Source: Candidatus Thiopontia autotrophica
GTDB taxonomy: Bacteria > Pseudomonadota > Gammaproteobacteria > GCF-002020875
Reading direction: 5' to 3'
Length of the DNA stretch: 64,000 bases
Assembly: GCA_014384675.1 (NCBI GenBank)
Contig: JACNFK010000020.1
Location: 3,954-67,953, forward strand
The notes under the pieces are model-generated. The model did not search any database and was not told where the DNA came from. It was given only the letters and a program-made list of their open reading frames with translations. Shown one piece after another: positions 31,655 to 51,728 of this stretch. The translations under genes and the position numbers were made by a program. The number at the start of each line of letters is the position of its first letter. Within the stretch, counting starts at the first letter, position 1.

Positions 31655-32281
31655 ATGAGCGATACCCAAACAAAAGTCCATGTCACCATTAACGGCAAAC
31701 AGATCCATGTCTCCTCGACACTATCTGTAATCCAGGCACTGTGGAAAGCAGGATATCCCCGCGTCCAGGGGGTTGGCTGTCTCGAGGGTGTATGTGGATC
31801 CTGCCGGGTATTGGTGCGTCGCGCAGAAACTGACGAGATAAGCATGGAGATGGGGTGCCAGACCCTGGTTGAGGATGGTATGGAGGTAATGTTTCTGGTC
31901 TTTCCGTCACCATCCCAGCATAGCTACAGTCTGGAACAGATACAAAATTCATGGGAGGTCCAGACCGAGTTCCACAAGATTTTTCCTGAAGCACAACAGT
32001 GCCGCAATTGTCACGGTTGTACAACATCATGCCCCAAGGATATTGATGTTGAGAAGGGGGTTGAGCTTGCGGTAAAGGGGCGTTTTAAAGAGGCCGGAGA
32101 CCTGTTTATTGAGTGTGTTATGTGTGATCTCTGCATGACCGGATGTCCTGAACAGATTGCTCCAAACCATGTTGGCCTGTTTGCTCGACGTGTGACCGCA
32201 TACTTTCACTCTCGCCCCTCCAACCTGATTAATCGCCTTGAAAAGATCCGTACTGGCGCCCTACAGGTGATCAAGGAGTAA
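31655..32281 (+). CDS. succinate dehydrogenase / fumarate reductase iron-sulfur subunit-like protein (short, 208 aa)
   Basis: [2Fe-2S] motif CLEGVCGSC (cf. SdhB CREGVCGSD) plus two Cys clusters, CRNCHGCTTSCP and CVMCDLCMTGCP, in the positions of the SdhB [4Fe-4S]/[3Fe-4S] sites. Confidence 0.8.
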   Translation: MSDTQTKVHVTINGKQIHVSSTLSVIQALWKAGYPRVQGVGCLEGVCGSCRVLVRRAETDEISMEMGCQTLVEDGMEVMFLVFPSPSQHSYSLEQIQNSWEVQTEFHKIFPEAQQCRNCHGCTTSCPKDIDVEKGVELAVKGRFKEAGDLFIECVMCDLCMTGCPEQIAPNHVGLFARRVTAYFHSRPSNLINRLEKIRTGALQVIKE

Positions 32282-32283
32282 TT

Positions 32284-33921
32284 ATGGATAAGGTCAATAA
32301 CGAGGCAATATCCTATCAGAAGGCAGTCGCCAACTATCGCATCAAACAGGAGCGGCCTCTGCCAATACCTGAAATTGATAGTGAAAAACTGTTAAACAGT
32401 TTTCACCCAGACTATATCGAAGAGTGCCTAACTACACTAAAGGTTGGAGCCAACAAGGGAGACCCTTGCCACAAACAGCTTGCCGATACACTGCAGTCAG
32501 ACTCAAGAATCAGTGAAGCTGATTTGGCAGGAGCCGCGACTGTAGAGACAGATGTACTGGTTATTGGTGGTGGTGGTGCAGGATGTGCTGCCGCACTGAT
32601 TGCACAACAACAGGGGGCCAGAGTAATCCTGGCTACAAAACTGCGTCTTGGGGATAGCAACACAGTAATGGCAGAGGGCGGTATTCAAGCCTCCATCAAC
32701 AAGGATGATTCGCCCCAATTCCACTATAACGACACCATGAGTGCCGGCCATCAGAAATCTGATCCTGACCTTGTATCTCAACTGGTGCTGGATGGACCTG
32801 ATGTTATTCGCTGGCTTATCCAGCAGGGCATGCAGTTTGATCTGGATGAGTTTGGTGACCTGCTTACCAGGCGTGCTGGTGGTACCTCAGCGGAACGCAT
32901 ATGTTTCTATCGTGACTACACTGGCCTGGAGATGATGCGAGTACTACGTGAATCTGTCCATAACAGCAACATTGATGTGTGGGACTACAGTCCAACAGTG
33001 GAGCTACTAGGGGATGATCAGGGTGGCTGCTCTGGAGCTGTTATCTCTTCACTGAAAAATCGAAAATATATCCAGATAAGCGCAAAGGCAGTTATTGTCG
33101 CAACTGGCGGCATTGGAAGAATGCACCTTAATGGTTTTCCAACATCAAACCATTTCGGTGCAACTGGTGATGGCCTGGTACTCTCCTATCGCATGGGAGC
33201 GCAACTGCGTGATCTTGACTCTTTTCAGTACCATCCAACTGGTCTTGCATACCCCTTCCACCTTGCAGGCAGCCTTATAACTGAAGGAGTTCGCTCCTGT
33301 GGAACCTATCTGTTAAACGGGAATGGAGAACGCTTTGTTGATGAGCTCTCCGCTCGAGATATTGTTGCTGCCGCCGTTATTCGTGAATGTCGTGAAGGTC
33401 GAGGCATAATTACAGAGGATGGCCATCAGGGAATCTGGCTGGACACCCCAGGGCTGGAGGCCAGGCAACCCGGGGTTCTGCAGAAGAGGTTTCCCAAGCT
33501 AATGCACCTGGGAGAGAAAGCCGAAATCAACCCGGCTGAAACACCACTACTTATATACCCTACCCTCCACTATCAGAACGGTGGTGTAGTAATTAATGAA
33601 GATTGTGAAACCTCAGTGCCAGGACTCTTCTCTACTGGTGAGGTAACCGGTGGAATTCACGGAAGAAATCGTCTTATGGGAAATGCTCTTCTTGAGATTA
33701 TCAGCTTTGGGCGTAAGGCAGGAGCTGCCGCCGCCAAAAAAAGAAAAGACAAACGCAGCAGTCAACTATCTATTGAGCACCTAAATACACTCCGTAGAGA
33801 GCTGACCAACGCAGAACTCTCTATGGATCTACAGGGACCAATACTCTTTCCTGAATATGCAAAATTTGATCTGGACTCAGATTATGTTGGTCTGCACCGT
33901 AACCGAAGGCAGAGCTCATGA
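32284..33921 (+). CDS. FAD-dependent fumarate reductase / L-aspartate oxidase-family flavoprotein with ~85-aa N-terminal extension
   Basis: GxGxxG VLVIGGGGAGCAAALIA, then MAEGGIQA (no His for covalent FAD, as in NadB and soluble FRDs), HPTGLAYPFHLAGSLITEGVRSCGTYLLNGNGERFVDELSARDIVAAAV (close to E. coli NadB FHPTALYHP...LTEALRGEGAYL...RDIVARAI), and GNALLEIISFGRKAG. Stop overlaps the next start (ATGA). Confidence 0.8.
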   Translation: MDKVNNEAISYQKAVANYRIKQERPLPIPEIDSEKLLNSFHPDYIEECLTTLKVGANKGDPCHKQLADTLQSDSRISEADLAGAATVETDVLVIGGGGAGCAAALIAQQQGARVILATKLRLGDSNTVMAEGGIQASINKDDSPQFHYNDTMSAGHQKSDPDLVSQLVLDGPDVIRWLIQQGMQFDLDEFGDLLTRRAGGTSAERICFYRDYTGLEMMRVLRESVHNSNIDVWDYSPTVELLGDDQGGCSGAVISSLKNRKYIQISAKAVIVATGGIGRMHLNGFPTSNHFGATGDGLVLSYRMGAQLRDLDSFQYHPTGLAYPFHLAGSLITEGVRSCGTYLLNGNGERFVDELSARDIVAAAVIRECREGRGIITEDGHQGIWLDTPGLEARQPGVLQKRFPKLMHLGEKAEINPAETPLLIYPTLHYQNGGVVINEDCETSVPGLFSTGEVTGGIHGRNRLMGNALLEIISFGRKAGAAAAKKRKDKRSSQLSIEHLNTLRRELTNAELSMDLQGPILFPEYAKFDLDSDYVGLHRNRRQSS

Positions 33922-35177
33922 GTGACTTATCAAAACTGAATCAGGTACTACTTCATCCTGATCGTCGCTTCGGTGCTGATCTCGATACCTGGCTGGTTGA
34001 TATTGGTGGTGACGGTCTGGAGAAAGCAATACTGAATCCGGAACATATTCTACCAACCATTCGTGAAGCAAAGTTACTGGGGCTCGGTGGTAGCGGGTTC
34101 CCAACCCATATCAAGTGGGAATTTGTAGCGAATGAACCGAGTGACCAGGACAAATATCTCATCTGTAACGGAAATGAAGATGAGCCGGGAACATTCAAAG
34201 ACCGAATCCTGCTTCAGGAGACCCCTCATCAGGTTATTGAAGGGGCAATTATTACCGCACTGGCCACTGGCACAAACCAGATTGTCTTCTATATAAATCC
34301 TGAACAGGAAGGTTCGCTTGAGGCGATGAAAGAGGCCACAAACCAGTGGAGTGAAACCGACTATGTAAACCAGGTCTCCAACATCCTTGGACGCCCTCTT
34401 GAGTTTTATATTGTTGCCAGCTCTGGTCACTATATTGGTGGTGAAGAGACTGCGGCAATTGAGTCTATTGAGGGCAAATTTCCATTTCCACGTGGCAAGC
34501 CACCATATCCTGCTAAAGCAGGACTATTTGGACTCCCTACACTGATTAATAATGTAGAGACCATGGCCAACGTCTCTCATATTATTCGCAATGGTGCAGA
34601 GTGGTTTATAAACCAGGGAGAGGGAGACTCGCACGGCACAAAGATCTTCTCCCTGAGTGGTGATGTACTACGTCCCGGAGCTTATGAACTCCCGATGGGT
34701 ACTCCCCTGTCTGACCTGATCCATATCCATGGTGGAGGCATGTTGCTGGACAGAAAACTCAAGGCAGTCTTTACCGGTGGCCCCTCCAACACAATCTTGA
34801 CACCAAAGGATCTGGATGTCCCGCTGGACTTTGACTCGGTGCAGGAGAGACGATCCAGCCTGGGTACAGGGGCAATGATCGTAATCTCAGAGGGGACAGG
34901 AGTTGTACGCCGGGTGACAGAATATGTCTCGTTCTTTGCAAACTCATCCTGTGGGCAGTGTCCTTCATGCAAAACAGGAACATTTTATGCGTCTCAACTG
35001 CTCTCGCGAATTGACAGCGGAAATGGAACCCGTGCCGATCTTGACACATTGATTAATCTAACCCGCATCCTCCCGGGAAGTGGCCGTTGCCATCTTTTGG
35101 ACGGGGCAATAAAACTGCTTGATAGCTCTCTCTACCATTTTATGGATGAATATGAGCAACCACTGAGACACAGCTAA
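33918..35177 (+). CDS. NuoF / 51-kDa-like NADH-binding FMN iron-sulfur flavoprotein
   Basis: GLGGSGFPTHIKWEF (NuoF GRGGAGFPTGLKW), YLICNGNEDEPGTFKDRILLQETPHQVIEGAIITALATG (NuoF [28 protein letters not shown]), GGEETAAIESIEGK, and [4Fe-4S] SCGQCPSCKTG (NuoF SCGQCTPCREG). Confidence 0.8.
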   Translation: MSDLSKLNQVLLHPDRRFGADLDTWLVDIGGDGLEKAILNPEHILPTIREAKLLGLGGSGFPTHIKWEFVANEPSDQDKYLICNGNEDEPGTFKDRILLQETPHQVIEGAIITALATGTNQIVFYINPEQEGSLEAMKEATNQWSETDYVNQVSNILGRPLEFYIVASSGHYIGGEETAAIESIEGKFPFPRGKPPYPAKAGLFGLPTLINNVETMANVSHIIRNGAEWFINQGEGDSHGTKIFSLSGDVLRPGAYELPMGTPLSDLIHIHGGGMLLDRKLKAVFTGGPSNTILTPKDLDVPLDFDSVQERRSSLGTGAMIVISEGTGVVRRVTEYVSFFANSSCGQCPSCKTGTFYASQLLSRIDSGNGTRADLDTLINLTRILPGSGRCHLLDGAIKLLDSSLYHFMDEYEQPLRHS

Positions 35178-35371
35178 ACAAACCTAAACTTCGGCGAAAT
35201 CTAGGTAAAAAACCGGTAATCGTCGGTTATTTTCTCCAAAAACCACAATACACACATAGCTTATATAGTCATTTCAGCTTGATTCCACACCCTGTTTCAT
35301 GAGATGATTAGCGGCTATTGCCACCGACCTGTCAAGGTCAACAAAAGAAAAAGCTCTGCGAGGAAATCGTT

Positions 35372-37259
35372 CGTGCAACCAACTAGCATCAAAGAAAATA
35401 TTGTAGAAATTGTAAGCGACTCTGGAGAAGGAGCCCAAAAATGTGGGCAGACCTTCGGAAATATAAGTGCCAAAATGAACAATGGAGTCTGGACGGTAGA
35501 AATTATCCCTGCCGAGATCCAGCCACCTGCGCGCACCCCATCTGGAGCCAGTGGTATTCGTATCCGCTTTGGCTCTAAATATATGACCAATGTCGGCAAT
35601 GAGGGTGACCTGGTTGTCGCCTTCAATGAACAGGTTCTCTACTCCAGAATAGCCAATGGTGCCTACAAAAAAGGCACTATTGTTCTGTTGGATAATCGCT
35701 GGGAAAGTGATGCTTCCACAGAAATTCAGGAGATGTATAGAAAGGCCGTTGTCGAATTCCGTGAGCATGGGCTGGTTGTCCATGAGCTACCGATCCACGA
35801 GGCCTGTCTGGAGGTAGTCAAAGACCCCCGCAAAGGGAAAAACATGTTTGTCCTCGGCATGCTCTGCCGAATCTATAACCGCGACAAAGAGATGAGCCGA
35901 AACGAGATTGCCATCACCTTTGCCGGCAAGAAAAACGCGATCATCACCAGCAATCAAAACCTGTTTGATGCTGGTTACGCCTTTGCAGAGAAGCATGTTG
36001 GCGACTATTTCTTTGATATTCCTCCAGCAGAAGAGATGGGCAGTCAGAAAATGGTTGTCACTAACGGGAATACTGCAATTGGTTTGGGGGTGATGGCCTC
36101 TGGAATGGAGTTAGTCTCCATGTACCCCATTACTCCGGCAACCTCTGCCTCACACTATCTGGCAGATGTTTACCCGGCAGCTGGAGGCTTCGTTCATCAG
36201 GCAGAGGATGAGATTGCGGCAATAGCATTTGCAATTGGTGCCTCCTACGCTGGCAAAACAGCCTGCACAATTACCTCAGGTCCAGGTATGGCACTGAAGA
36301 CCGAGAACATTGCTCTGGCAGTAATGGCAGAGATCCCGCTGGTGATTGTAGATGTTCAGCGTGGCGGGCCATCTACTGGTCTCCCCACCAAAATTGAGCA
36401 GGGAGACCTCCTCTCATCCCTTTATGGCATGCCTGGAGATGCGCCCAAGATTATACTTGCTGCCGCCACCATTGCTGAGTGTTTTAGTATGGTAGTGCTG
36501 GCCCGCAAACTGGCTGAAACCTTCCGCACCCCAGTAATCGTCTTGACAGATGCAAATCTGGCAACCGGGGTACAGCCTTGGGTACGTCCGGAATTGAGCC
36601 GTGACATGCTGGCACCACCACTGGATCAATCAGAATGGAACCCGGATGTTCCAGCCTATGACTGGGATGAAAAAACCGGGCTCTCACAACGCCCAATCCC
36701 GGGAATGCCCAGGGGTGAATATGTACTGACAGGCCTCTCTCACACCAAACAGAGCAAGGTATCCTATGAGTCGACCGAGAACCAGCACAGCACAAGCATG
36801 CGTAGTCGCAAACTGGCCACCTTGCAAAGCACCCTGACTCCTCCAGAAATACACGGTGACGAGAGTGGAGACCTGTTAGTTGTTGGCTGGGGTTCTACCT
36901 ATGGCGCAATCAACGAGGCAATTGATAATCTTCGTGAAAAAGGGAGCAAGGTCTCCTCAATACACCTACGATTCCTCTCTCCATTGGAGCCTGGACTAAA
37001 AGAGATTTTCTCTAGATTCAAAAAGGTAATTACGGTAGAGGTCAACTACAGTGACGACCCCAAGGCACCGATGATTACCGATGAGAACCGTCGCTACGCA
37101 CAGCTGGCTAGCATACTACGTATTCAGACTCTGGTTGATGTGGACTGCTGGTCAGTGGTCTATGGACACCCCCTGCAACCGGAACTTATTGAGAACGCCA
37201 TTCAGGAACGGTTGGATCAGGTTACTGACAACCGATCCTCACAGGACAAAGGAGAATAA
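35372..37259 (+). CDS. korA: 2-oxoglutarate:ferredoxin oxidoreductase subunit alpha, two-subunit type
   Basis: GTG start with GAGG 8 nt upstream gives MQPTSIKENIVEIVSDSGEGAQKCGQTFGNISAKMNNGVWTVEIIPAEIQPPARTP. This matches the conserved KorA N-terminus of two-subunit OFORs (SGDSGDG..QLTG....A..GND..T.PDFPAEIRAP). The track start at 35304 adds an implausible leader. Followed 2 nt later by korB. Confidence 0.85.
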
Positions 37260-37261
37260 CG

Positions 37262-38224
37262 ATGTTTGGAATCAAGGCAGATTGGTCCCTCGATATTCAG
37301 GAGCGTTACTTCACCCTGGATGATTATGAAGGAAATGAGGCACGCTGGTGCTCCGGATGTGGTGACCATGCAGTACTGGCAACAGCTCATCGCATCCTGC
37401 GTGATGCTCAGCTACCACCGGAAAAATCAGTTTTTGTCTCCGGAATCGGCTGCTCAAGCCGGATGCCACACTATATGGCAACTTATGGACTCCATGGGCT
37501 CCATGGTCGCGCCCTCCCTCTGGCCTGCGGGGTAAAATCTCGACGCCCAGATCTTGATGTATGGGTAGCTACCGGAGATGGTGACTGTTTCTCTATTGGT
37601 ACAGCTCACTGGATTCATGCCGTGCGTTATAACATGGATATGACAGTGCTTGTCTTTGACAACCAGATCTATGGATTGACCAAAAAGCAGACCTCTCCAA
37701 CCACCCCAATCGAGTTCAAGACCAGCACTCATCCGCAGGGAGCATCTCTGGATATGCTCAACCCCAATACAGTTACTCTGGGAATCACCAACGCATCATT
37801 TGTTGCGCAGGTTGTGGACTGGAACCCTCCCCTGCTGCACGAGACTCTGAAGGCGGCACACAAACACAAGGGGACAAGTTTTGTCAGAATCATTCAGCGT
37901 TGCCCGGTCTTTGTAGACTCCATTACCAAGGAGCTTCAGGAGGATGCCTCCAGACTGCGTCTACTGACCCATGAAAACGGGATCCCCGTCGCCAAGGGAA
38001 TTGAAAAGCTCTTTCCTGAAACCATGGAACATGACCCTGCAGATATGGCTGAAGCTCTTCAAATTGCACGTGACGAGACCGAGAAGGGAATCATTCCTGT
38101 TGGTCTCCTCTATCAGAATAGTAACATCCCTTGCTACAGTGACCTCTCTAGCGTCGGCCACGATGCTACGGATGAAATAAAGATTGCTGCAACCAATGAC
38201 GCCCTGGATGCGTTTGCGATCTAA
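37262..38224 (+). CDS. korB: 2-oxoglutarate:ferredoxin oxidoreductase subunit beta, TPP-binding
   Basis: N-terminal Cys cluster WCSGCGDH ... GIGCSS for the [4Fe-4S]. Canonical TPP motif GDGDCFSIG...(x27)...VFDNQIYGLT. Confidence 0.88.
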   Translation: MFGIKADWSLDIQERYFTLDDYEGNEARWCSGCGDHAVLATAHRILRDAQLPPEKSVFVSGIGCSSRMPHYMATYGLHGLHGRALPLACGVKSRRPDLDVWVATGDGDCFSIGTAHWIHAVRYNMDMTVLVFDNQIYGLTKKQTSPTTPIEFKTSTHPQGASLDMLNPNTVTLGITNASFVAQVVDWNPPLLHETLKAAHKHKGTSFVRIIQRCPVFVDSITKELQEDASRLRLLTHENGIPVAKGIEKLFPETMEHDPADMAEALQIARDETEKGIIPVGLLYQNSNIPCYSDLSSVGHDATDEIKIAATNDALDAFAI

Positions 38225-40770: not shown

Positions 40771-41634
40771 TTGAACAGTCTGCTAGCATCTCCAGCTATA
40801 ATGATGGGAATAGGACTCTTTTTCGGGGTAATTCTTGCTGTTGCCTATCGTCTGCTAAAGGTAGACGAAGACCCCAGAATTGATGAGACAGAAGAGATGC
40901 TACCTGGCACCAACTGTGGTGCATGTGGTGTTCCTGGATGCCGTGCTTTTGCTGAAGAACTCATCAAAGGCAGTGTGGAACCAAGCCAATGTACGGTTGC
41001 CCCCAAGGATGAGATCGAGGAAATTGCCGAATTCCTGGGAGTTGATGCTGGCTCACAGATAAAACGGGTTGCCCGTCTTCATTGTGCTGGTGGCAAAGAG
41101 GAGGCCTGGCAGATTGCAGAGTACCAGGGATTTGATAGCTGCCGCGCTGCTGCTGTAGTCTCTGGAGGTGGCAAAGGGTGTTCATGGGGATGTCTGGGAC
41201 TGGCAGACTGCGAGATCGCATGTGATTTTGATGCCATTCACATGAATGCCAATGGTCTCCCGGTTGTGGATCTGGATAAATGTACAGCCTGTGAGGATTG
41301 TGTAGTTGCATGTCCAAAGGATCTTTTCAAGATTCACCCGATTAATGAACACCTCCTGGTTCAATGCAGTGCCCCACTGGAGGGGGATGCGATTCTCTCA
41401 CTATGTGGTACCGCCTGTGATGGCTGTGGACGTTGTGCAACAGATGCCAATCCTGGCTTGATAGAGATGGTGGATGGCCTGCCTGTTGTAGATTACAGTA
41501 GCATGGTGGAAGAGACACCAGAGGCCACCTATCGCTGCCCCACTGAAGCCATTATATGGATAGATGGTGGACAGTTTGACCGCAAAAACAGAAACCTGAC
41601 CGAGGGTCAAAAACGTTATGCCCAGCTTCGCTGA
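40771..41634 (+). CDS. rnfB: Rnf electron-transport complex subunit B
   Basis: N-terminal TM helix, RnfB-specific LPGTNCGACGVPGCRAFAEELI (E. coli RsxB [21 protein letters not shown]), then two ferredoxin-type CxxCxxCxxxCP domains. TTG start with AGGAG 6 nt upstream; an ATG at 40801 is possible. Confidence 0.85.
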   Translation: MNSLLASPAIMMGIGLFFGVILAVAYRLLKVDEDPRIDETEEMLPGTNCGACGVPGCRAFAEELIKGSVEPSQCTVAPKDEIEEIAEFLGVDAGSQIKRVARLHCAGGKEEAWQIAEYQGFDSCRAAAVVSGGGKGCSWGCLGLADCEIACDFDAIHMNANGLPVVDLDKCTACEDCVVACPKDLFKIHPINEHLLVQCSAPLEGDAILSLCGTACDGCGRCATDANPGLIEMVDGLPVVDYSSMVEETPEATYRCPTEAIIWIDGGQFDRKNRNLTEGQKRYAQLR

Positions 41635-44600
41635 AATCGCAAACCGCATCTACCGCAAAGTCATCGGAGCAGATAACACTCTGCAAACAGACAGTCACGG
41701 TATTACCACAACGCTAAATGGTAGTGTTGCGGTAGCTACAGTTGAGAGCATTCTATCGGAGGCTGCCGCATGTGGTGAGGCCTTCCCTCCTGAGAAAGGT
41801 TCCATTGCATGGCGTAACGAACAGCAGCGTCAACAGGTTAATCTTTTTGGAAAGCCACTCCTTAACATAGAGAGCGGAAGTGCTCGTGGTGCACTATCTG
41901 CGGCCATGGGGCTTGCGATGGCTGGCAAACGGGCCTCCTGCAGTCTATGGTCAAGTGACCTTGCCAATGCACAGGATCTTGTCAGACGTGCAGTTGGTCA
42001 CCACTTGCCACTGGTTATCCATGCCACCAGCAAGGCACTTCCCCTGAATGGCGAAAGCCATGAAGATAGTGATGAAGGTATTCATCAACTCAGAGATAGT
42101 GGAGCATTTATTCTCTATGCACAGAATGTACAAGAGGCCATTGATTTCACCCTGATTGCCAGAGCAGTTGCTGAGAAGGCACTTGTTCCAGGTATAGTAA
42201 TAATGGATGGTCACGAAACCGCGTCATCACCACAACAGATTGAACTGCCATCTCCAGAACTTATCGAAAACCTGGTTGGCAACTATGCTGATTCAATTCC
42301 GGTTGCAGAGCCAGCCCAGCAACTTGTATTTGGAGAAGAGCGCCGCCGGGTGCCAAATTGGTACAGTCTGGATAATCCAACACTACAGGGAAGCTATCGA
42401 GACCCATACAGTTTTGGGCTTGGCACCATCTCTCACACCAAGTTCTTTGGAGCACTGGTTCAGGAAATTTTGCAGGATACCTTCACCGGTTTCGCTCAAC
42501 TAACAGGTAGAAATTACAGTGCTGTCACCTACCTCGGCAAGAAGAGAGCTAAAAAGATTATTGTTTGCTATGGATCAATAACAGGTCGTTGTAATAACAT
42601 CTCCAACCAACTTAAAGAGATTGCTGTAGCTAGTATTCATCTGCTTGCACCATTTCCTGCCAAAACACTACATGAGACTCTACAGAACTGTAGTGAGGCT
42701 ATAATCCTTGATCGCAGTGAATCACTGCTTGATGAAAAGCCTCAGTTGTATAGAGAAGTTTTGCCTCTGCTCTCACATAACTGTAAGGCAAACTCCGTCA
42801 TCTATGGAGTTGGAGGACTTCCTGTTCACGACTCTGATCTGGTGGCAGCGTTTAAGGCTCCTCACCATGATGACGCTATAAGGGTTGGAGTTACCCCACT
42901 ACCCAACAACAGCAATCCAAAACAGCAGGTCCTAACTGACCTGCTGGAGAGGAATTATCCTGAACTGGGGGAACTTGGCATTACTGGAGGGAGAGAGAAC
43001 AACAGCCACCCCTCCACACCATCCAACTCACAGCATACCCCTATGGCAGTACGCCACCTGGGATCTGATCAAGATAGCGGATACCAGAACCTGTCACGAT
43101 TCTGGGATCAGACCGGAGTTCTCTACCGGGACGGGATGGAGAGTAACCAGGGTATTGATCCATTCGCTGCAGTTGGTCACATTCCTCCGCTAACCTCAAC
43201 ATTTATCACTACTGGCTGCAACACTCTGCCTCTTCTCAATCCGGAGCAGTGCACAGGATGTGGCAAGTGTTGGAGTAACTGTCCTGACAGTGCAATTGTA
43301 GCTGTCTCCCTCTCTCCCACCCAACTTCTGGAGGCAGGTATAAAGATGGGAGGAGCAGATGCACTGCGCCCCCACCTATCCAAACTCGCCAAACAGATGA
43401 GCCTCACCATCAACAGCGGTGAAGCTAAAGAGCTTTTAGAAAAAAGCTGGGATGAGTTAATGACACACTCCCCCCTCCCGGATGAACGCAGAACCAGTGC
43501 GGAAGATGCCATATCACAGCTTGCATCCAACATTGGTGAGCTCCCTCTCATCCATACAGAACCTCTTTTCCACCACCCGGAACGGCTAAAAGCACAATCC
43601 GGGGAGCTGCTATCAATTGTAGTCAACCCTGACAGCTGCAAGGGATGTGGAATCTGTGCCGAACTTTGTAAAACAGAATCAGATACGCCTGCACTCACTA
43701 TGCAGGAACAGAGTGATGAAGAGCTGGACCACGCCTATAAGAGCTGGAGAGTATGGGAGCAACTTCCAGACAGTAGCTCAACAACCATTATTGATTATGG
43801 TGCTCGTCCGGAAATCAGCACACTCAATGCAACCATGCTCTCTCGCCATGCATCTATGGCAATGGCTGGTGGTGACTCTGCAGAACCAGGTTCTGGTGAG
43901 AAAATTGCTATCAGACAACTGTTGGGGATAACCGAATATCATCAACAGCCAATGGTACACAGACTTCTGGAGAATATTGATGAGACTCATCAAAAGCTAC
44001 TCTCCGGAATCCGGGAAAAACTGGCAGTAGCCTCTCATGCCGATGATCTCTCCTCGCTGGCAGAAGGTCTTGAGAGCGTATCCAGCAGGCAAATTGATCT
44101 GAGTGCATTGGCAGAAAAGACTGCCAATATTGAAAGTGATGGTGTAAATGCGGAAGAGCTGAAAGAGTGGATAAATCTGGCTGAGAGAATCCGCACAGAG
44201 AGAGAAAGGATTGCAAGCGGAGAACACTCTCTGGGACGCTCCCGCTATAGCATGGTATTTGCTCCTGGAACTGCAGCAGCCTGGGCGGGAACCTTTCCAT
44301 CCAACCCATTCCAGGTCCCTGTAGTTATTGGATCTGCAGGAGAGGTCGGTGCCCTTGCATCCGGCCTGATAGAGGGTCAACTGGAACAGGCCACAGAGAT
44401 TCATCGCATTTTGCGCAAAGCAAAACTACTACTGAAGAATGGCTCTCTTGCAGAACGCAAGGCCACAGAACAGCTTGTCTGGGGGGATTTAAGCAGAGAT
44501 GAACTACAGCAATCGCCTCCTCTATTGCTAATTGGCAATGACACCACGCTGGGTGCAGAATCTGCAGGGGAACTTATCTGGTTACTTAACAGCAGACTCC

Positions 44601-45394
44601 CCATAAAGGTTATTGTGCTGGCAGAAATGGATCTTGGGTTTAGTGACACCCACTCCGATGCCCGCTCGGAGCTTGCTCTGACTGCCCTCTCCCAACGCAA
44701 TGCTTACGTTGCACAGAGCTCAATCGCCGCCCCTGACCATCTAAATAGAGTGGTACGTGAATCACTGCGTCATTCTGGACCTGCCCTGCTAAGAATTTAT
44801 GTGCCCAGCCCACAACGCCATGGATTTAATCCCGAGGCGACAATCAGACAGGCTGAATTGGCCCTCAACGGACATGCCACTCCTCTATTTAGCTACAACC
44901 CGACTGCTGACGGAGTCTTTGGAACACGCATTAGCCTGGAAGGAAATCCAACCGAGAGCAGATCAATTGCAGAGTGGGCAATCAGCGAAGAACGTTTCTC
45001 GGGACAGTTCACCAGCCTCTCCAATGGACAGAAGAGCAAAGCTGTAGAGCTTGAGGAGTGGCTCAAGCTTGATACCAGGGCCCAGAACAACAAGATTCCT
45101 GTTTTCGAAGAACATGCAATCAATCCCGGTTTTGCCAGTCGTCTGGGGCAACTGCTTGAGCAGTGGCAGATGCTCCAGGAGCTCGCCGGAATCGTTACTC
45201 CGTTTACTGAACAGGTTAAGAGAGAGGCAGAGAGCAATATCTCTGCCGACCATCAAAGAGAGATTGATGAACTGAACAGAGAGCACCAAGAGGAGCTCCA
45301 GACACTAAGAAACCGGCTGGAGTCCGAGATTACCCAACGCATAACTGATCAACTGGTTGCACTAACTGACAGCCAGTCTGATCCAGACCAATAA
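41618..45394 (+). CDS. divergent pyruvate:ferredoxin oxidoreductase (PFOR/NifJ)-like multidomain protein, 1258 aa
   Basis: Domain I/II-like N-terminus collinear with single-chain PFOR (IESGSARGALSAAMGLAMAGKRASCSLWSS...LPLVIHATSKAL vs PFOR [26 protein letters not shown]...LPGVFHVTARAI). Central 2x[4Fe-4S] ferredoxin domain (CTGCGKCWSNCP, CKGCGICAELCK). C-terminal TPP-domain-like region with a degenerate motif (LLLIGNDTT...KVIVLAEMDLG instead of GDG...NTGGQ). I see no counterpart of PFOR domain III. 150-aa coiled-coil tail. Confidence 0.65.
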   Translation: MPSFAEIANRIYRKVIGADNTLQTDSHGITTTLNGSVAVATVESILSEAAACGEAFPPEKGSIAWRNEQQRQQVNLFGKPLLNIESGSARGALSAAMGLAMAGKRASCSLWSSDLANAQDLVRRAVGHHLPLVIHATSKALPLNGESHEDSDEGIHQLRDSGAFILYAQNVQEAIDFTLIARAVAEKALVPGIVIMDGHETASSPQQIELPSPELIENLVGNYADSIPVAEPAQQLVFGEERRRVPNWYSLDNPTLQGSYRDPYSFGLGTISHTKFFGALVQEILQDTFTGFAQLTGRNYSAVTYLGKKRAKKIIVCYGSITGRCNNISNQLKEIAVASIHLLAPFPAKTLHETLQNCSEAIILDRSESLLDEKPQLYREVLPLLSHNCKANSVIYGVGGLPVHDSDLVAAFKAPHHDDAIRVGVTPLPNNSNPKQQVLTDLLERNYPELGELGITGGRENNSHPSTPSNSQHTPMAVRHLGSDQDSGYQNLSRFWDQTGVLYRDGMESNQGIDPFAAVGHIPPLTSTFITTGCNTLPLLNPEQCTGCGKCWSNCPDSAIVAVSLSPTQLLEAGIKMGGADALRPHLSKLAKQMSLTINSGEAKELLEKSWDELMTHSPLPDERRTSAEDAISQLASNIGELPLIHTEPLFHHPERLKAQSGELLSIVVNPDSCKGCGICAELCKTESDTPALTMQEQSDEELDHAYKSWRVWEQLPDSSSTTIIDYGARPEISTLNATMLSRHASMAMAGGDSAEPGSGEKIAIRQLLGITEYHQQPMVHRLLENIDETHQKLLSGIREKLAVASHADDLSSLAEGLESVSSRQIDLSALAEKTANIESDGVNAEELKEWINLAERIRTERERIASGEHSLGRSRYSMVFAPGTAAAWAGTFPSNPFQVPVVIGSAGEVGALASGLIEGQLEQATEIHRILRKAKLLLKNGSLAERKATEQLVWGDLSRDELQQSPPLLLIGNDTTLGAESAGELIWLLNSRLPIKVIVLAEMDLGFSDTHSDARSELALTALSQRNAYVAQSSIAAPDHLNRVVRESLRHSGPALLRIYVPSPQRHGFNPEATIRQAELALNGHATPLFSYNPTADGVFGTRISLEGNPTESRSIAEWAISEERFSGQFTSLSNGQKSKAVELEEWLKLDTRAQNNKIPVFEEHAINPGFASRLGQLLEQWQMLQELAGIVTPFTEQVKREAESNISADHQREIDELNREHQEELQTLRNRLESEITQRITDQLVALTDSQSDPDQ

Positions 45395-45420: not shown

Positions 45421-46596
45421 ATGAACCTTCACGAATATCAATCCAAAGAGCTTTTTGAACAGGTTGGGATCCCCGTACCTGCTGGAGTAACCATCGAACG
45501 TCTTGGTGAGGTAGCGCAGGCTGCCAACGATATTGGTGGCGAGGCCTGGGTTGCCAAGGCGCAAGTCCATGCTGGTGGGCGCGGCAAGGCTGGAGGCGTA
45601 AAAATAGCAAAGAGCATTGATGAACTTTCTACCTTCAGTGATGAGATGCTGGGTAGCACCCTAACCACCCCTCAGACCCATGGTCGTGGCCTGCCTATCC
45701 AGAAGGTATTAATTGAACAGACACTGGATATCAGTAGAGAGTTATACCTTGGCGCACTGGTTGATCGCGATCGCGAACAGATTGTCTATATGGTATCTGC
45801 GGCTGGTGGAATGGATATCGAACAGGTTGCTGCCGAAACTCCCGAGAAGATACTTACAGTACATGCCCATAGTGCTGCTGGTCTGCAGCCATACCAATGC
45901 CGCCAACTGGCATTTGGGCTGGAGCTGGAGGGCAAACAGATTGGGATGTTGACCAAAATTGTTAGCGGTCTGCACCGTCTATTTACTCACAACGACTTTA
46001 GTCTGGTAGAGATTAACCCTCTTATAGTAACTGGTGATGGAGATCTTCTGGCGCTTGATGCCAAGATCAACCTGGATGATAACGCTCTCTATCGCCACCC
46101 GAAACTACAGGAACTACATGATCCGTCACAGGAAGATAGGACTGAACTCGAAGCAAGCAAACACGACCTGAACTATATAACTCTGGACGGCAATATTGGC
46201 TGCATGGTCAATGGTGCCGGTCTCGCTATGGCTACAATGGATCTGATCAAGCTCCATGGCGGAGACCCTGCAAACTTTCTTGATGTCGGTGGCGGTACAA
46301 CTGCAGAACGGGTAGCCGCTGCATTCAAGCTGATCCTCAGTGACGCCAAGGTAGAGGCCATTCTGGTAAATATCTTCGGTGGCATCGTGCGCTGTGATCT
46401 GATTGCCGAGGGAATAATCTCGGCTGTGAAGGAGGTTGGTATAGAGATCCCGGTAATTGTTCGTCTGGAGGGAACCAACGCTCCGCAAGGGATGGATCTC
46501 CTGAAAAACAGTGGACTCAACATTGATGTTGAAGAGACCCTTACAGGGGCTGCCAAGAAGGCAGTCTCTTCAACCAATAGCCAGGAGGGAGAGTAG
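45421..46596 (+). CDS. sucC: succinate--CoA ligase (ADP-forming) subunit beta
   Basis: [20 protein letters not shown]...[19 protein letters not shown] is near-collinear with E. coli SucC ([20 protein letters not shown]...[19 protein letters not shown]). Confidence 0.93.
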
Positions 46597-46598
46597 AG

Positions 46599-47474
46599 AT
46601 GAGCATTTTAATTAACAACGATACTCGTGTCATCGTCCAGGGCTTCACAGGCAAACAGGGCACATTCCACGCAGAGCAGTCAATTGCCTACGGAACAAAT
46701 ATTGTTGGAGGAGTAACCCCGGGGAAAGGTGGCCAGAGCCATCTTGACCGCCCTGTATTCAACACTGTAAAAGATGCTGTAGACGCTACCGGTGCTGATG
46801 CCAGCATGATCTATGTTCCTGCCGCCTTTGCGGCGGACGCAATCTTTGAGGCTGCTGCCGGTGGTATCAAGACGATCGTATGCATTACCGAGGGCATTCC
46901 TGTTCAGGACATGATCAAGGTAAAGGCATTCCTGAAAGACTTTCCAGACACCCGCCTTATCGGACCCAACTGTCCAGGCATCATCACCCCCGGAGCCTGC
47001 AAGATTGGAATCATGCCTGGCAATATTCACCAGGAGGGGGCAATTGGCATAGTCTCCCGTTCTGGCACCCTCACCTATGAAGCGGTCTTCCAGACCACCA
47101 ATGAGGGTCTTGGACAGAGTACCTGTATCGGTATTGGAGGAGATCCAATCCATGGCATGAATTTTATCGACTGTCTGGAGCTGTTCCAGCAGGATGAACA
47201 GACCAGGGGAATTGTACTGGTTGGTGAGATTGGTGGCAGCAAAGAGGAGGAGGCCGCAGAGTATATTCGCCAGAATGTAACAAAGCCGGTAGTAGCATAT
47301 ATTGCCGGAGTGACCGCACCTCCAGGACGCAGAATGGGTCATGCAGGTGCAATCATCTCTGGTGGCAAGGGAACAGCGGAAGACAAGATAAGCGCCCTTG
47401 AGGCAGCCGGGGTCACAGTCTCCCGCTCTCCTGCCGAGATCGGAAAACATATGGCTGCATTACTGAACAGTTAA
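46599..47474 (+). CDS. sucD: succinate--CoA ligase subunit alpha
   Basis: [24 protein letters not shown], phospho-His loop [14 protein letters not shown], and CoA-binding fold. Confidence 0.93.
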
Positions 47475-47487
47475 CCATTAATAGTTT

Positions 47488-48837
47488 ATGGGTCTCCTTT
47501 CACTTTTCAGACAGAGCTTTGCACACGGTGTACACCCTGCCCACAACAAGGGGCAGACTGCAGACCTTGCAATTCAGCGGGTACCTTTTGGTCACCGTTA
47601 TGTAATGCCGCTGGGGCAACATATAGGTGCGCCAGCCATAGCTGTTGTAAAAAAAGGTCAGAGCGTGAAACGTGGAGAGATGATTGCCAAACCGGGAGGC
47701 TTCATATCTACCGCTCTACACAGCCCAGTCACCGGCACAGTAAGTGAAATAAGCCCTCAACGCACACTGGATGGATCATTTAAACCAGCCATTGTCATCG
47801 AGGCTGATCCATTTTCCACCCAGAGGGTAGAGACCACCCCTCCCCCATCCTGGGAGACCATCTCTCTGGATGATTTTATTGAACTTGTACAGCAGGCAGG
47901 AGTAGTTGGAATGGGTGGTGCAGCATTCCCCAGCCATGTTAAATACTCGATTCCAGACGGCATCGTGATTGATGATCTGCTGATCAATGGTGCAGAGTGT
48001 GAGCCGTTCCTTACCAACGATCATCGCTTAATGGTTGAGCAGCCAGAAAAAGTTATTAACGGAACCGAAATCCTGCGCCAAAAACTTGGGGCCAAGAGAG
48101 CCAATATTGGCGTAGAGAAAAATAAGCCAGAGGCGATTGTAAATCTCCAAAAAGCTCTTGATAAAAACCCGGAACTGCCAATAACCATAACCCCTCTGGA
48201 GGTGAAGTATCCCCAGGGTGCAGAGAAGATGTTGATTCAATCTGTCTACCACAAAGAGGTTCCTGCCGGTCAACTACCGAGAGATATCGGGGTTGCTGTC
48301 AACAACAGCGGCACCGTTGTAGCGATTGCTGACCTCTTTGCAACCGGATCCCCACTTATTGAACGGGTGGTCACAGTCTCTGGCCCTGGCATTGATCAAC
48401 CAGCAAATCTTCTGGTTCCACTTGGTACTCCAGTCAGGGATGTATTGAAATTCTGTGGTGGGCTCAATGACAAAACTCGAGAGGTAATAATGGGTGGTCC
48501 CATGATGGGATTTCCTATAGCCAGTCTGGATGTTCCCATTCTAAAGGGAAGCTCAGCCATTCTTGCATTTACCGAGCAAGAGACAGCCAGACCCCATGAG
48601 TACCCATGCATTAGATGTGGGCGCTGCCTGGAGGCATGCCCATACTTTCTCAATCCATCACGGCTGGCACTGTTAAGTCGCAACAGACGTTATGAAGAGA
48701 CTATTGATTACCATGTAATGGATTGTGTTGAGTGCGGTGCATGCAGCTTTGCATGCCCATCCAATATCCCGATTGTGCAGTTGATTAGAACAGCCAAAGA
48801 CAATATGCGCCAGCACCCTGTCGAGGAGGCAGCATGA
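47488..48837 (+). CDS. rnfC: Rnf complex subunit C
   Basis: N-terminal GVHPAHNKGQT...PLGQHIGAPA, Rossmann-like GMGGAAFP, and two C-terminal [4Fe-4S] motifs (CIRCGRCLEACP, CVECGACSFACP). Confidence 0.9.
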   Translation: MGLLSLFRQSFAHGVHPAHNKGQTADLAIQRVPFGHRYVMPLGQHIGAPAIAVVKKGQSVKRGEMIAKPGGFISTALHSPVTGTVSEISPQRTLDGSFKPAIVIEADPFSTQRVETTPPPSWETISLDDFIELVQQAGVVGMGGAAFPSHVKYSIPDGIVIDDLLINGAECEPFLTNDHRLMVEQPEKVINGTEILRQKLGAKRANIGVEKNKPEAIVNLQKALDKNPELPITITPLEVKYPQGAEKMLIQSVYHKEVPAGQLPRDIGVAVNNSGTVVAIADLFATGSPLIERVVTVSGPGIDQPANLLVPLGTPVRDVLKFCGGLNDKTREVIMGGPMMGFPIASLDVPILKGSSAILAFTEQETARPHEYPCIRCGRCLEACPYFLNPSRLALLSRNRRYEETIDYHVMDCVECGACSFACPSNIPIVQLIRTAKDNMRQHPVEEAA

Positions 48838-49850
48838 ACAGGGATGACCCGAATCTTCTGCTGCAGCCATCACCTCTGGTAAAACAGGGGCTGACTGTAC
48901 CGACTGCAATGCGTGACGTGTTGTTGGCACTTATGCCTGCACTATTTGCAGGGATCTGGTTCTTTGGCCTGAGTGCACTGCTGGTGGTTACTGCGACCAC
49001 TCTTGGTGCCTTGATGACAGAGTGGGTTTTTACCTCCAGAGAGAGCCGCTCCATTACGCTTGGTGATGGCAGTGCACTACTTACTGGAATATTACTGGGT
49101 ATGACCCTACCACCTGCTCTTCCGCTGTGGATGGCGTGGCTGGGAGGAGTAGTTGCTATTGGGCTCGGCAAGATAATCTGGGGAGGTCTTGGTAATAATC
49201 TATTCAACCCTGCCATTGTGGGTCGTGCCTTTCTGCTTGGAACATTTCCAATAGCAATGACGACATGGCATATCGCTGCGGGGCCTGACAGTTTCTTCAG
49301 CCTACACCCAAGCACCCTTGCCATGCCATTCATGCAGTCTCCCCCCATGGATGGCATGAGTGCCGCAACCCCACTTGGCCTGATGAAGTTTGAGCAGATT
49401 GATACCCCAATATTCTCCCTGATGTTTGGCAACACCTCTGGCTCACTTGGAGAGACCAGTGGCCTGCTACTGATGGTTGGAGGACTATACCTGCTGTTAC
49501 GTCGTGCGCTGGAGTGGAGAATACCACTGGCAATCTTTCTCTCTGTAGGGGTCTTTACCCTACTGTTACAGGCAATCGATCCAGCCCGTTTCCCAGATAT
49601 CCATTTCACCCTCTTCTCTGGCGGAATGATGCTTGGTGCAATCTACATGGCAACCGACCCTGTCACCTCACCTGTCACTACAAAAGGGGCATGGATATTT
49701 GGTTGCGGAGTTGGATTCCTGGTAGTGCTAATTCGTAACTTTGGTGGGCTACCAGAGGGGATACTATATGCCATTCTCTTTATGAATGCCGCCACCCCAC
49801 TGATTAACCGTTATACCCAACCCAGAGTCTTTGGCCGGAGCAGGAAATGA
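48834..49850 (+). CDS. rnfD: Rnf complex subunit D
   Basis: Polytopic NqrB/RnfD-family membrane protein. Overlaps the rnfC stop by 4 nt. Has the conserved FMN-attachment region. Confidence 0.88.
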   Translation: MNRDDPNLLLQPSPLVKQGLTVPTAMRDVLLALMPALFAGIWFFGLSALLVVTATTLGALMTEWVFTSRESRSITLGDGSALLTGILLGMTLPPALPLWMAWLGGVVAIGLGKIIWGGLGNNLFNPAIVGRAFLLGTFPIAMTTWHIAAGPDSFFSLHPSTLAMPFMQSPPMDGMSAATPLGLMKFEQIDTPIFSLMFGNTSGSLGETSGLLLMVGGLYLLLRRALEWRIPLAIFLSVGVFTLLLQAIDPARFPDIHFTLFSGGMMLGAIYMATDPVTSPVTTKGAWIFGCGVGFLVVLIRNFGGLPEGILYAILFMNAATPLINRYTQPRVFGRSRK

Positions 49851-50482
49851 GTGACGAACCCACCTCCACCCGCCTGATCTCCACACTGGCAATAGCTGGG
49901 CTAATTTCAGGCGTGGCAATTGTTGCCATCTATGAGGCTACTCTGCAGACAATTACCGACAATAAAGCCAGAGAGTTGAGAGAGGCTGTATTCAAGGTGT
50001 TGCCAGGGGTAAGTGAGATGAAAAAGTTTCAGCTAGATGCAGACGGCCTGCGTTTCCGTACAGAAAAAGGTAAAGATGAAAACACCCTTTACGGTGGATA
50101 TAACCAGCATGGAGAGTTCGTCGGTTATGCCCTCCCCAGTGCCGGTCCGGGGTTTCAGGACACTATCGGGATACTGTATGGATATATTCCAGAGTCACGT
50201 AAAGTAGTAGGTATGGAGATTCTGGAGAGCCGTGAGACTCCAGGGCTTGGAGACAAAATATACAAGGACCTCTCATTTGTATCCAATTTTGATAATCTTG
50301 CTATTGATCCAGAAATAGTTACCGTGAAAAAAGGGATGAAGAACGCTCCCAATGAAGTTGATGCCATTACAGGTGCAACCATCTCAGCAAAAGCTGTGGT
50401 TCGTATTATCAACGAGGGTAATGAGCGCTGGTTAAACAGGCTTCCTACCCACGGCATTCCACTACATGAGGGAGCCAGATAG
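49847..50482 (+). CDS. rnfG: Rnf complex subunit G (FMN-binding)
   Basis: N-terminal anchor and the covalent-FMN site context DAITGATISAKAV. Confidence 0.88.
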   Translation: MSDEPTSTRLISTLAIAGLISGVAIVAIYEATLQTITDNKARELREAVFKVLPGVSEMKKFQLDADGLRFRTEKGKDENTLYGGYNQHGEFVGYALPSAGPGFQDTIGILYGYIPESRKVVGMEILESRETPGLGDKIYKDLSFVSNFDNLAIDPEIVTVKKGMKNAPNEVDAITGATISAKAVVRIINEGNERWLNRLPTHGIPLHEGAR

Positions 50483-50484
50483 TC

Positions 50485-51138
50485 ATGGCAAAAACACCTG
50501 AAAGCGCGTACCAGGAGATGCTCAAGGGGATCTGGAGAGACAACCCTGTCTTTGTCCAGGTACTCGGAATGTGCCCCATGCTGGCGGTCACCAACTCTGC
50601 TGTCAATGCATTGGCGATGGGGCTAGCCACATTCTTTGTGCTGGTAGGCTCCAGCCTGCTGGTCTCACTAATGCGCAAGTGGATTCCCAAACAGGTTCGT
50701 ATCTCCAGCTACATCATCATTATCGCCACCTTTGTAACCATCATCGACTATACCCTGCTGGCAATCTTTCCCAAGATCCACAAAGAGCTAGGAGCGTTCA
50801 TCCCGCTGATTACCGCAAACTGCCTGATCCTGGGGCGCCAGGAGGCCTTCGCCTCACGCAACAGTGTCCGCTTTGCGGTAATGGATGCGGTGGGTATGGC
50901 GGGAGGATTCCTCTTCGCCCTGCTGGCACTTGGTGGGGTGCGCGAGATTCTCGGTGAGGGGGCACTGTTTGGGGTCTCACTCTTCGGACCCAACTTTGAA
51001 CCATGGATAATCATGATCCTGCCACCTGGCGGCTTCCTTACCCTGGGGCTGATTCTGCTCTTCTTCAACTGGGTCACAGAGAAGCGCAGAGAGGCACAGA
51101 TGCGTATGCTGCAACCGGCTGAGGAGAGAGCGTCATGA
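50485..51138 (+). CDS. rnfE: Rnf complex subunit E
   Basis: NqrD/RnfE family: NPVFVQVLGMCPMLAVT ... LITANCLILGR. Confidence 0.88.
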   Translation: MAKTPESAYQEMLKGIWRDNPVFVQVLGMCPMLAVTNSAVNALAMGLATFFVLVGSSLLVSLMRKWIPKQVRISSYIIIIATFVTIIDYTLLAIFPKIHKELGAFIPLITANCLILGRQEAFASRNSVRFAVMDAVGMAGGFLFALLALGGVREILGEGALFGVSLFGPNFEPWIIMILPPGGFLTLGLILLFFNWVTEKRREAQMRMLQPAEERAS

Positions 51139-51728
51139 TGACAGATGCCGCCTTCCAGCACTTCCTCTGGATTTTCGTCAGTGCTCTGTTGGTAAACAAC
51201 TTTGTGCTGGCATACTTTCTTGGGCTCTGCCCATTCCTGGGTGTCTCCGGAAAGCTCGAAACCTCATTCAGGCTTGGGCTTGCCACCACCTTTGTACTGA
51301 TTATCACCGCCATCTGTGCCTGGATACTCAACACCTACGTACTTCCCCATGCACCATACCTGCGACTGATCAGCTTTATTGTGGTGATTGCCAGCGTAGT
51401 ACAATTTATCGAGATGCTGATCAAAAAGCTCAGCCCCTCTCTATTCCGCTCACTTGGAATCTTCCTGCCGCTGATCACCACCAACTGCGCCATCCTGGGG
51501 CTTGCCATATTTGCCACCAACCGTGAATATGGGTTTGCTGAAAGCATTATCTTCGCCCTTGGTGCCGGAGGCGGATTCACCCTGGCACTGCTGCTTATGG
51601 CCGGACTTCGTGAGGAGAGTGAACTATCCGATGTTCCAACCCTGATACGTGGCACTGCATTTAATCTGATTATTGCAGGCATCCTCTCCATGGCCTTTAT
51701 GGGCTTTGCCGGACTCTTCTCGTCATGA
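51135..51728 (+). CDS. rnfA: Rnf complex subunit A
   Basis: NqrE/RnfA family: FVLAYFLGLCPFLGVS ... LPLITTNCAILG. Confidence 0.88.
   Translation: MMTDAAFQHFLWIFVSALLVNNFVLAYFLGLCPFLGVSGKLETSFRLGLATTFVLIITAICAWILNTYVLPHAPYLRLISFIVVIASVVQFIEMLIKKLSPSLFRSLGIFLPLITTNCAILGLAIFATNREYGFAESIIFALGAGGGFTLALLLMAGLREESELSDVPTLIRGTAFNLIIAGILSMAFMGFAGLFSS

Follow-up and report, generated by a model that had tools for sequence, protein, structure and literature searches.

A catalytically degenerate PFOR-like protein encoded in the Rnf operon of sulfur-oxidizing bacteria: a possible built-in bridge for electrons in place of an enzyme

The analyzed window, a stretch of 64,000 nucleotides from Candidatus Thiopontia autotrophica, was found to encode a catalytically degenerate PFOR/OFOR paralog of 1258 aa (Table 1). 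Its start codon is ATG, and the gene begins within the end of the rnfB-like ORF with a measured overlap of 17 nt, in agreement with the preliminary description of this DNA. The sucC gene starts 26 nt past its stop codon. The KorAB enzyme encoded upstream has intact motifs (YPITP, CxxC...C...C and GDG...DNQIYG) and no delta/ferredoxin domain. The genes located upstream of korA would, by their sequences, make up a soluble NADH-linked fumarate-reductase-type module, and mdh is also present at the locus. No canonical nifJ or porABDG was found within the window. The locus had been framed in terms of rTCA-type autotrophy, and the fumarate-reductase-like module, korAB, sucCD and mdh fit such a framing; however, the carboxylase is KorAB and not the 1258-aa protein, for which a synthase role had been one of two readings.

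Table 1. Features of the window and of the 1258-aa protein (nucleotide positions within the window; aa, residues of the 1258-aa protein).
Feature	Position	Strand	Remarks
Fe-S protein, TfrA/FrdA-like flavoprotein, NuoF-like protein	31655..35177	+	Upstream of korA
korA (gamma-alpha fusion) and korB	35304..38224	+	Two-subunit 2-oxoacid:ferredoxin oxidoreductase
p839, second degenerate paralog, 839 aa	38243..40762	+	phmmer, hhalign, invariant Cys, model
RnfB, 287 aa	40771..41634	+	N-terminal membrane helix, FeS domain, multiple [4Fe-4S] motifs
Catalytically degenerate PFOR/OFOR paralog, 1258 aa	41618..45394	+	Whole ORF
Domains I and II (aa 29-420)	41702..42877	+	OFOR alpha-subunit fold kept
Linker (aa 421-474) at the deleted domain III (CoA-binding POR)	42878..43039	+	Alignment, Pfam, pLDDT
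Ferredoxin domain V (aa 536-700)	43223..43717	+	Fer4 matches
Domain VI (aa 701-1110)	43718..44947	+	PP-domain fold kept; ~100-aa helical insert 776-875
C-terminal extension (aa 1111-1192) and charged helix (aa 1193-1258)	44948..45391	+
sucC and sucD (succinyl-CoA synthetase)	45421..47474	+	Lineage-specific insert between the 1258-aa protein gene and rnfC
rnfC, rnfD, rnfG, rnfE, rnfA	47488..51728	+

A database protein identical to the 1258-aa product (P0001, 100% identity) was present on 14 contigs. Pfam matched POR_N (residues 90-236), PFOR_II (311-402) and Fer4 (540-560 and 667-685), which supported the earlier alignment of the two N-terminal domains and the dicluster ferredoxin domain with PFOR. 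At E<=0.1, no Pfam match was obtained for TPP_enzyme_C (PF02775), POR domain III (PF01558) or EKR (PF10371), and the score on the NCBIfam model TIGR02176 (pyruv_ox_red) was 131.2 bits, where the cutoff is 911.35. The models of PorD/KorD/OorD matched the cluster motifs, and no other ligand-binding family was matched in Pfam or NCBIfam. Among the elements required of a competent OFOR, the Pyr-domain fold (domain I), domain II and a domain V with two [4Fe-4S] motifs were present, whereas the CoA-binding domain III or gamma subunit (PF01558) and the GDG-X(~25)-N/T Mg-TPP motif were absent. The AF2 model, which ends at residue 1195 and leaves the last 63 residues outside, showed a confident fold with both the alpha-like and the beta-like OFOR folds kept. 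Superposition of the chain on PFOR as a single rigid body gave 23.5 A over 781 residues, hence the domain arrangement and the cluster positions are uncertain.

Domain V carries two CxxCxxCxxxC motifs (C545/548/551/555 and C674/677/680/684) separated by a ~100-aa helical insert, which is common to the intact long OFORs described below. All eight cysteines were invariant in 60/60 and 59/59 sequences and in 117 of 131 representatives. The absence of a domain III equivalent, reported earlier, was corroborated by the alignment, as a block of 170-220 aa that follows residue 463 in most family members is missing here; PF01558 was not recognized by Pfam in the relatives' block either. Its place is taken by a linker of ~55 aa modeled with low confidence (pLDDT <50 at 454-480). 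Losses of domain III have been repeated elsewhere in the family. The C-terminus had been described as a 150-aa charged coiled coil, and this description did not hold. Residues ~1111-1192 are globular and well modeled (pLDDT ~90), carry a WxxLQELAGxVTPFT motif and can be aligned in part to the C-terminal region of canonical PFOR. Residues ~1193-1258 form an extra helix of ~65 aa, with no Pro or Gly between 1197 and 1252 and with charged residues amounting to as much as 46% per 28-residue window. It was not called a coiled coil because the heptad signal in the periodicity analysis was weak.

The ligand residues were scored against PFOR for 59 close family members and for 144 further representatives at 50% identity, and more TPP-binding and proximal-cluster sites proved to be replaced than had been listed before. 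The YPITPSS segment, already noted as diverged, reads EAFPPEK (T31 to F56). SEAG is changed to SARG, the TPP-activating Glu (E64) being replaced by A89; the same position is occupied by Pro in 47/59 and by Ala in 8/59 close members, while Glu and YPITPS were kept in 7/7 intact or canonical controls. The loss of the proximal [4Fe-4S] cluster had been overlooked: GACxGCGE, TGC and PC are replaced by SAEPGSGE, PGT and PS, and all four ligands (C812, C815, C840 and C1071) are gone, with E756, S759, T885 and S1064 at their positions. The exchange of C812 for Glu was recorded in 59/59 close members and 130/144 representatives, that of C815 for Ser in 56/59 and 134/144, and that of C1071 for Ser in 57/59 and 119/144, whereas the replacement of C840 varied across the family. 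As to the GDG...N anchor, its reported replacement was borne out by GNDT instead of GGDG and by AEMDLGFS instead of DTEVYSNT, but the Asp itself persists as D975. The representatives were scored by alignment, since the 'GGDG' pattern also matches the conserved AGGDGAEPGSGEK loop of the family, and none of them had more than 4 of the 11 canonical domain-VI residues.

Some positions of the former active site were retained in part, namely the Mg-ligand Asp (D975) and the substrate-carboxylate position R114, which is Arg in the family consensus and Lys in the 1258-aa protein. Strong conservation was also observed in the old active site for R90 (58/59 close members, practically family-invariant), E756, S759, D1005 (48/59) and G1007 (53/59), and could mean a new ligand site and not just a filled cavity.

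The family comprised 447 clusters (50% identity, E<=1e-30), and the species genomes with relatives numbered at least 337. Full-length diverged homologs numbered in the hundreds, with a mean column identity of 41%, ~40 invariant positions and a conserved N-terminus. The level of conservation was even over all domains, domains I and VI being equal to the ferredoxin domain. Catalytic residues are lost while the fold and the sequence are conserved in many lineages; since the same losses recur across the 59 close members and the 144 representatives, the proteins are judged to be an old, selected pseudoenzyme family under purifying selection.

The neighboring p839 protein was identified by sequence profiles as a second, previously unrecognized dead paralog. 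It corresponds to domains V-VI and the tail of long OFORs and has neither the ferredoxin-domain Cys nor the GDG motif. A long helix is followed by a disordered linker of ~60-70 aa and by a terminal single-cluster Fer4_13 domain with invariant cysteines (C766/769/772/808/812). The homology is claimed from phmmer against P0062 (E 4e-43 and 4e-20) and from hhalign of A2 against A1 (probability 100, E 2e-81) and not from fold matches, as the model was moderate (pLDDT 68.8) and its matches to OFOR beta subunits were weak. In Endoriftia, a gene labeled 'PFOR-like ferredoxin' lies directly after korB(3), and when sulfide is limiting its expression drops along with that of korA(3) and korB(3) (PMC11636981). 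By its gene position it is the p839 ortholog; its assignment as an ortholog of the 1258-aa protein was rejected, since the position matches p839 instead.

The gene order was compared across 80 genomes; the count was based on order, since strict stop-to-stop ORF boundaries overlap. The conserved arrangement was korA-korB-p839-rnfB-1258-aa protein-(sucCD)-rnfCDGEA. The rnfB gene was located upstream of the homolog in 68/70 loci, p839 in 58/63, korB in 52/59 and korA in 47/54. Downstream, rnfC was found in 55/65 and rnfCDGEA in 43/52 loci, and the full core was found in 29/38. The sucCD insert (12/68 related loci) and the upstream fumarate-reductase-like genes (8/25) were present in a minority. 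Thiosymbiont and Thiorhodococcus were among the few loci with neither korAB nor p839 nearby, and in at least two loci (L079 and L084) only rnf genes were detected near the homolog. The degenerate PFOR-like scaffold is carried in the Rnf operon by hundreds of sulfur-oxidizing bacteria.

Intact long OFORs of ~1550-1730 aa, such as P0060 and P0062, named '2-oxoacid:acceptor oxidoreductase family protein', were 24-27% identical to the 1258-aa protein. They share with it the inserts in domains V and VI, the FWDQTG and WxxLQELAG motifs, the tail helix and many clade-specific invariant residues. However, the long OFORs have YPITPST, the Glu, four proximal Cys, GGDG...DTQVYSNT and domain III, and they end in a fused Fer4_13 domain, which is absent from the 1258-aa protein and in the window is borne by p839. 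The intact form is abundant in Bacteroidota, where relatives of ~1635 aa adjoin rnfCDGEA without korAB (one species context). P0060 and P0062 are encoded directly upstream of rnfCDGE(A), just as the 1258-aa protein is encoded next to rnfB and upstream of rnfCDGEA with sucCD between; rnfB is immediately upstream of P0060 and comes after the rnf genes for P0062. A 357-aa protein in the p839 slot beside P0060 showed no detectable relation to p839 or to the 1258-aa protein. No characterization of long OFORs of the P0060 and P0062 type was found in the literature.

In comparison with PFOR (NifJ; D. africanus 1B0P, M. thermoacetica 6CIN), the 1258-aa protein has the same two [4Fe-4S] motifs of domain V. 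The TPP-activating Glu and the YPITPSS loop are missing from it, as are the proximal cluster, the Mg-TPP motif and both domain III and EKR. Inserts of ~100 aa are present within its domains V and VI, and it is extended at both termini, with an additional helix at the C-terminal one. The identity was 15-16% by the full-length structure-based Foldseek alignment and 22-26% by local BLASTP, which covered ~30% of the query. The dicluster ferredoxin module also resembles domain V and the delta subunits PorD/KorD/OorD, which pass electrons from the proximal cluster of an OFOR to external carriers or back. Unlike those, it is part of a degenerate 1258-aa OFOR body in which a large insert separates the two motifs, and its gene lies between rnfB and (sucCD-)rnfC instead of accompanying korAB only. 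RnfB is likewise a cytoplasmic poly-[4Fe-4S] electron conduit encoded in the rnf operon, but homology to it is limited to the Fer4 motifs, the 1258-aa protein has no membrane helix, and a genuine RnfB is encoded immediately upstream. The flexible tethered ferredoxin-like element of RnfB (PMC12174285) is comparable to the tethered Fer4_13 domain of p839.

From its place in the Rnf operon, with p839 and a working KorAB alongside, the 1258-aa protein would seem to be a built-in bridge for electrons and not an enzyme. We proposed, with moderate confidence, that together with p839 it acts as a redox-active adaptor coupling Rnf to KorAB and that it originated as a pseudoenzyme from a long OFOR. The ancestor would have been a 'long' Rnf-linked 2-oxoacid:ferredoxin oxidoreductase, which would have lost its ability to bind TPP, its proximal [4Fe-4S] cluster and, in the present lineage, its CoA domain, the overall fold and the two ferredoxin-domain [4Fe-4S] clusters being kept. 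In p839, a small ferredoxin domain would be flexibly tethered to a degenerate domain V-VI body. Both proteins most likely form a cytoplasmic adaptor that docks on RnfB/Rnf and wires it to the two-subunit KorAB, which itself lacks a ferredoxin (delta) domain. Ferredoxin docks on Rnf at the RnfB module, and Rnf operating in reverse can reduce ferredoxin (PMC12174285). When Rnf runs in reverse, the ion gradient would push NADH-derived electrons uphill to the 2-oxoglutarate synthase with no free ferredoxin pool, and the wiring could also operate in the opposite direction. The gene order and the co-regulation of neighboring genes in Endoriftia are compatible with a physical association with Rnf and KorAB, for which shared operon membership is guilt by association; the direction of electron flow and the role of a built-in ferredoxin are likewise presumptive. 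The empty proximal-cluster site would leave the medial and distal clusters at a dead end, so that a path to the KorB cluster would require a suitable assembly geometry. One of the two readings put forward in the preliminary description, an altered paralog reusing the electron-transfer scaffold, is supported and sharpened, as the two ferredoxin-domain clusters alone are kept and the gene is integral to an rnf operon that also encodes an intact KorAB and p839.

It is also conceivable, although unlikely, that the 1258-aa protein is a non-redox structural, regulatory or stabilizing partner of KorAB, for example a pseudo-protomer heterodimerizing with KorAB or p839, and that it is linked to rnf solely through co-regulation. 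OFOR protomers always pair as dimers, and the degenerate protein keeps the alpha-like and beta-like folds. The tight linkage of korAB, p839 and its gene, as well as the co-regulation of korAB(3) with the p839 ortholog in Endoriftia (PMC11636981), would suit such a partner. However, eight cluster-ligating cysteines that stay invariant across so deep a family speak for a function in redox chemistry. Moreover, rnfB is linked more tightly than korAB, at least two loci have only rnf genes detected, and the intact ancestor-like form of Bacteroidota adjoins rnf without korAB.

Less probable still was a repurposing of the cavity for a non-TPP ligand or chemistry, in which, for instance, binding of a metabolite, a nucleotide or a metal would be coupled to the two Fe-S clusters, making the protein a redox enzyme of a new kind or a sensor of redox state or metabolites. 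The conservation of E756, S759, S1064, R90, D1005 and G1007, and of domains I and VI as strongly as of the ferredoxin domain, would be expected of such a site. Nevertheless, many of the family-specific conserved residues are common to catalytically intact relatives and therefore reflect the architecture of the clade rather than a new site. The exchanges of Cys for Ser and Glu and the Arg would also be expected from filling or salt-bridging an empty cluster/TPP pocket, and no match to other ligand-binding families was obtained.

The other earlier reading, a working pyruvate or other 2-oxoacid synthase of extreme divergence, with bound TPP and an unconventional electron transfer, was abandoned as very improbable. 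The elements of TPP binding and of the electron path are replaced family-wide: four proximal Cys, the glycines flanking GDG, the DTxVYSNT half-motif and the YPITPSS loop are all gone. In the 1258-aa protein the CoA domain is deleted, as it has been repeatedly in other members, and PF02775 is undetected. In the PFOR geometry, electrons would not cross the distance from TPP to the following cluster under physiological conditions when the proximal cluster is missing. These losses outweighed the retained PFOR fold with both ferredoxin clusters, D975 at the Mg-binding Asp, the family-consensus Arg at the substrate-carboxylate position, the reductive-TCA-type enzymes encoded at the locus and the precedent of glyoxylate carboligase, a TPP enzyme that manages without the activating Glu. 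In addition, an intact KorAB is co-encoded, and Endoriftia also has a canonical PFOR (PMC11636981). Finally, a decaying pseudogene or an annotation artefact, to which the lost catalytic motifs and the splitting of the homolog into several ORFs in a few MAG loci (L017, L045, L046 and L083) might point, is effectively refuted by the frame unbroken over 1258 codons, the conserved N-terminus, the translational coupling to rnfB, the confident fold of its model and hundreds of diverged full-length homologs.

The adaptor proposal may be extended, more tentatively and with some doubt, to an Rnf-OFOR supercomplex in which the 1258-aa protein and p839 would serve as a hard-wired, partly tethered 'ferredoxin' between Rnf and the delta-less KorAB in Gammaproteobacteria that oxidize sulfur, among them symbionts of tubeworms, lucinids and nematodes. 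If so, NADH could drive the reductive carboxylation of succinyl-CoA with no soluble ferredoxin pool, and in the reverse direction the oxidation of 2-oxoglutarate could drive ion pumping. The Rnf-docked long OFOR of Bacteroidota would then be the surviving catalytically intact ancestor.

No description of this widespread, catalytically dead OFOR family was found in the searchable literature, and among reports on the family and on rnf operons with OFOR-like genes only the Endoriftia 'PFOR-like ferredoxin' label was specific. The proteins are at present labeled '4Fe-4S binding protein', 'ferredoxin', 'pyruvate-ferredoxin/flavodoxin oxidoreductase' or even 'pyruvate decarboxylase', and it would be an error for metabolic reconstructions to count these genes as PFOR or as pyruvate synthase. 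Microaerobic and aerobic chemolithoautotrophs and symbionts have to supply very low-potential electrons to 2-oxoacid synthases in the rTCA cycle and related pathways. The conserved operon of KorAB, two OFOR paralogs that are catalytically dead and retain Fe-S clusters, RnfB and rnfCDGEA offers a model for a dedicated, possibly channelled transfer from Rnf to OFOR.

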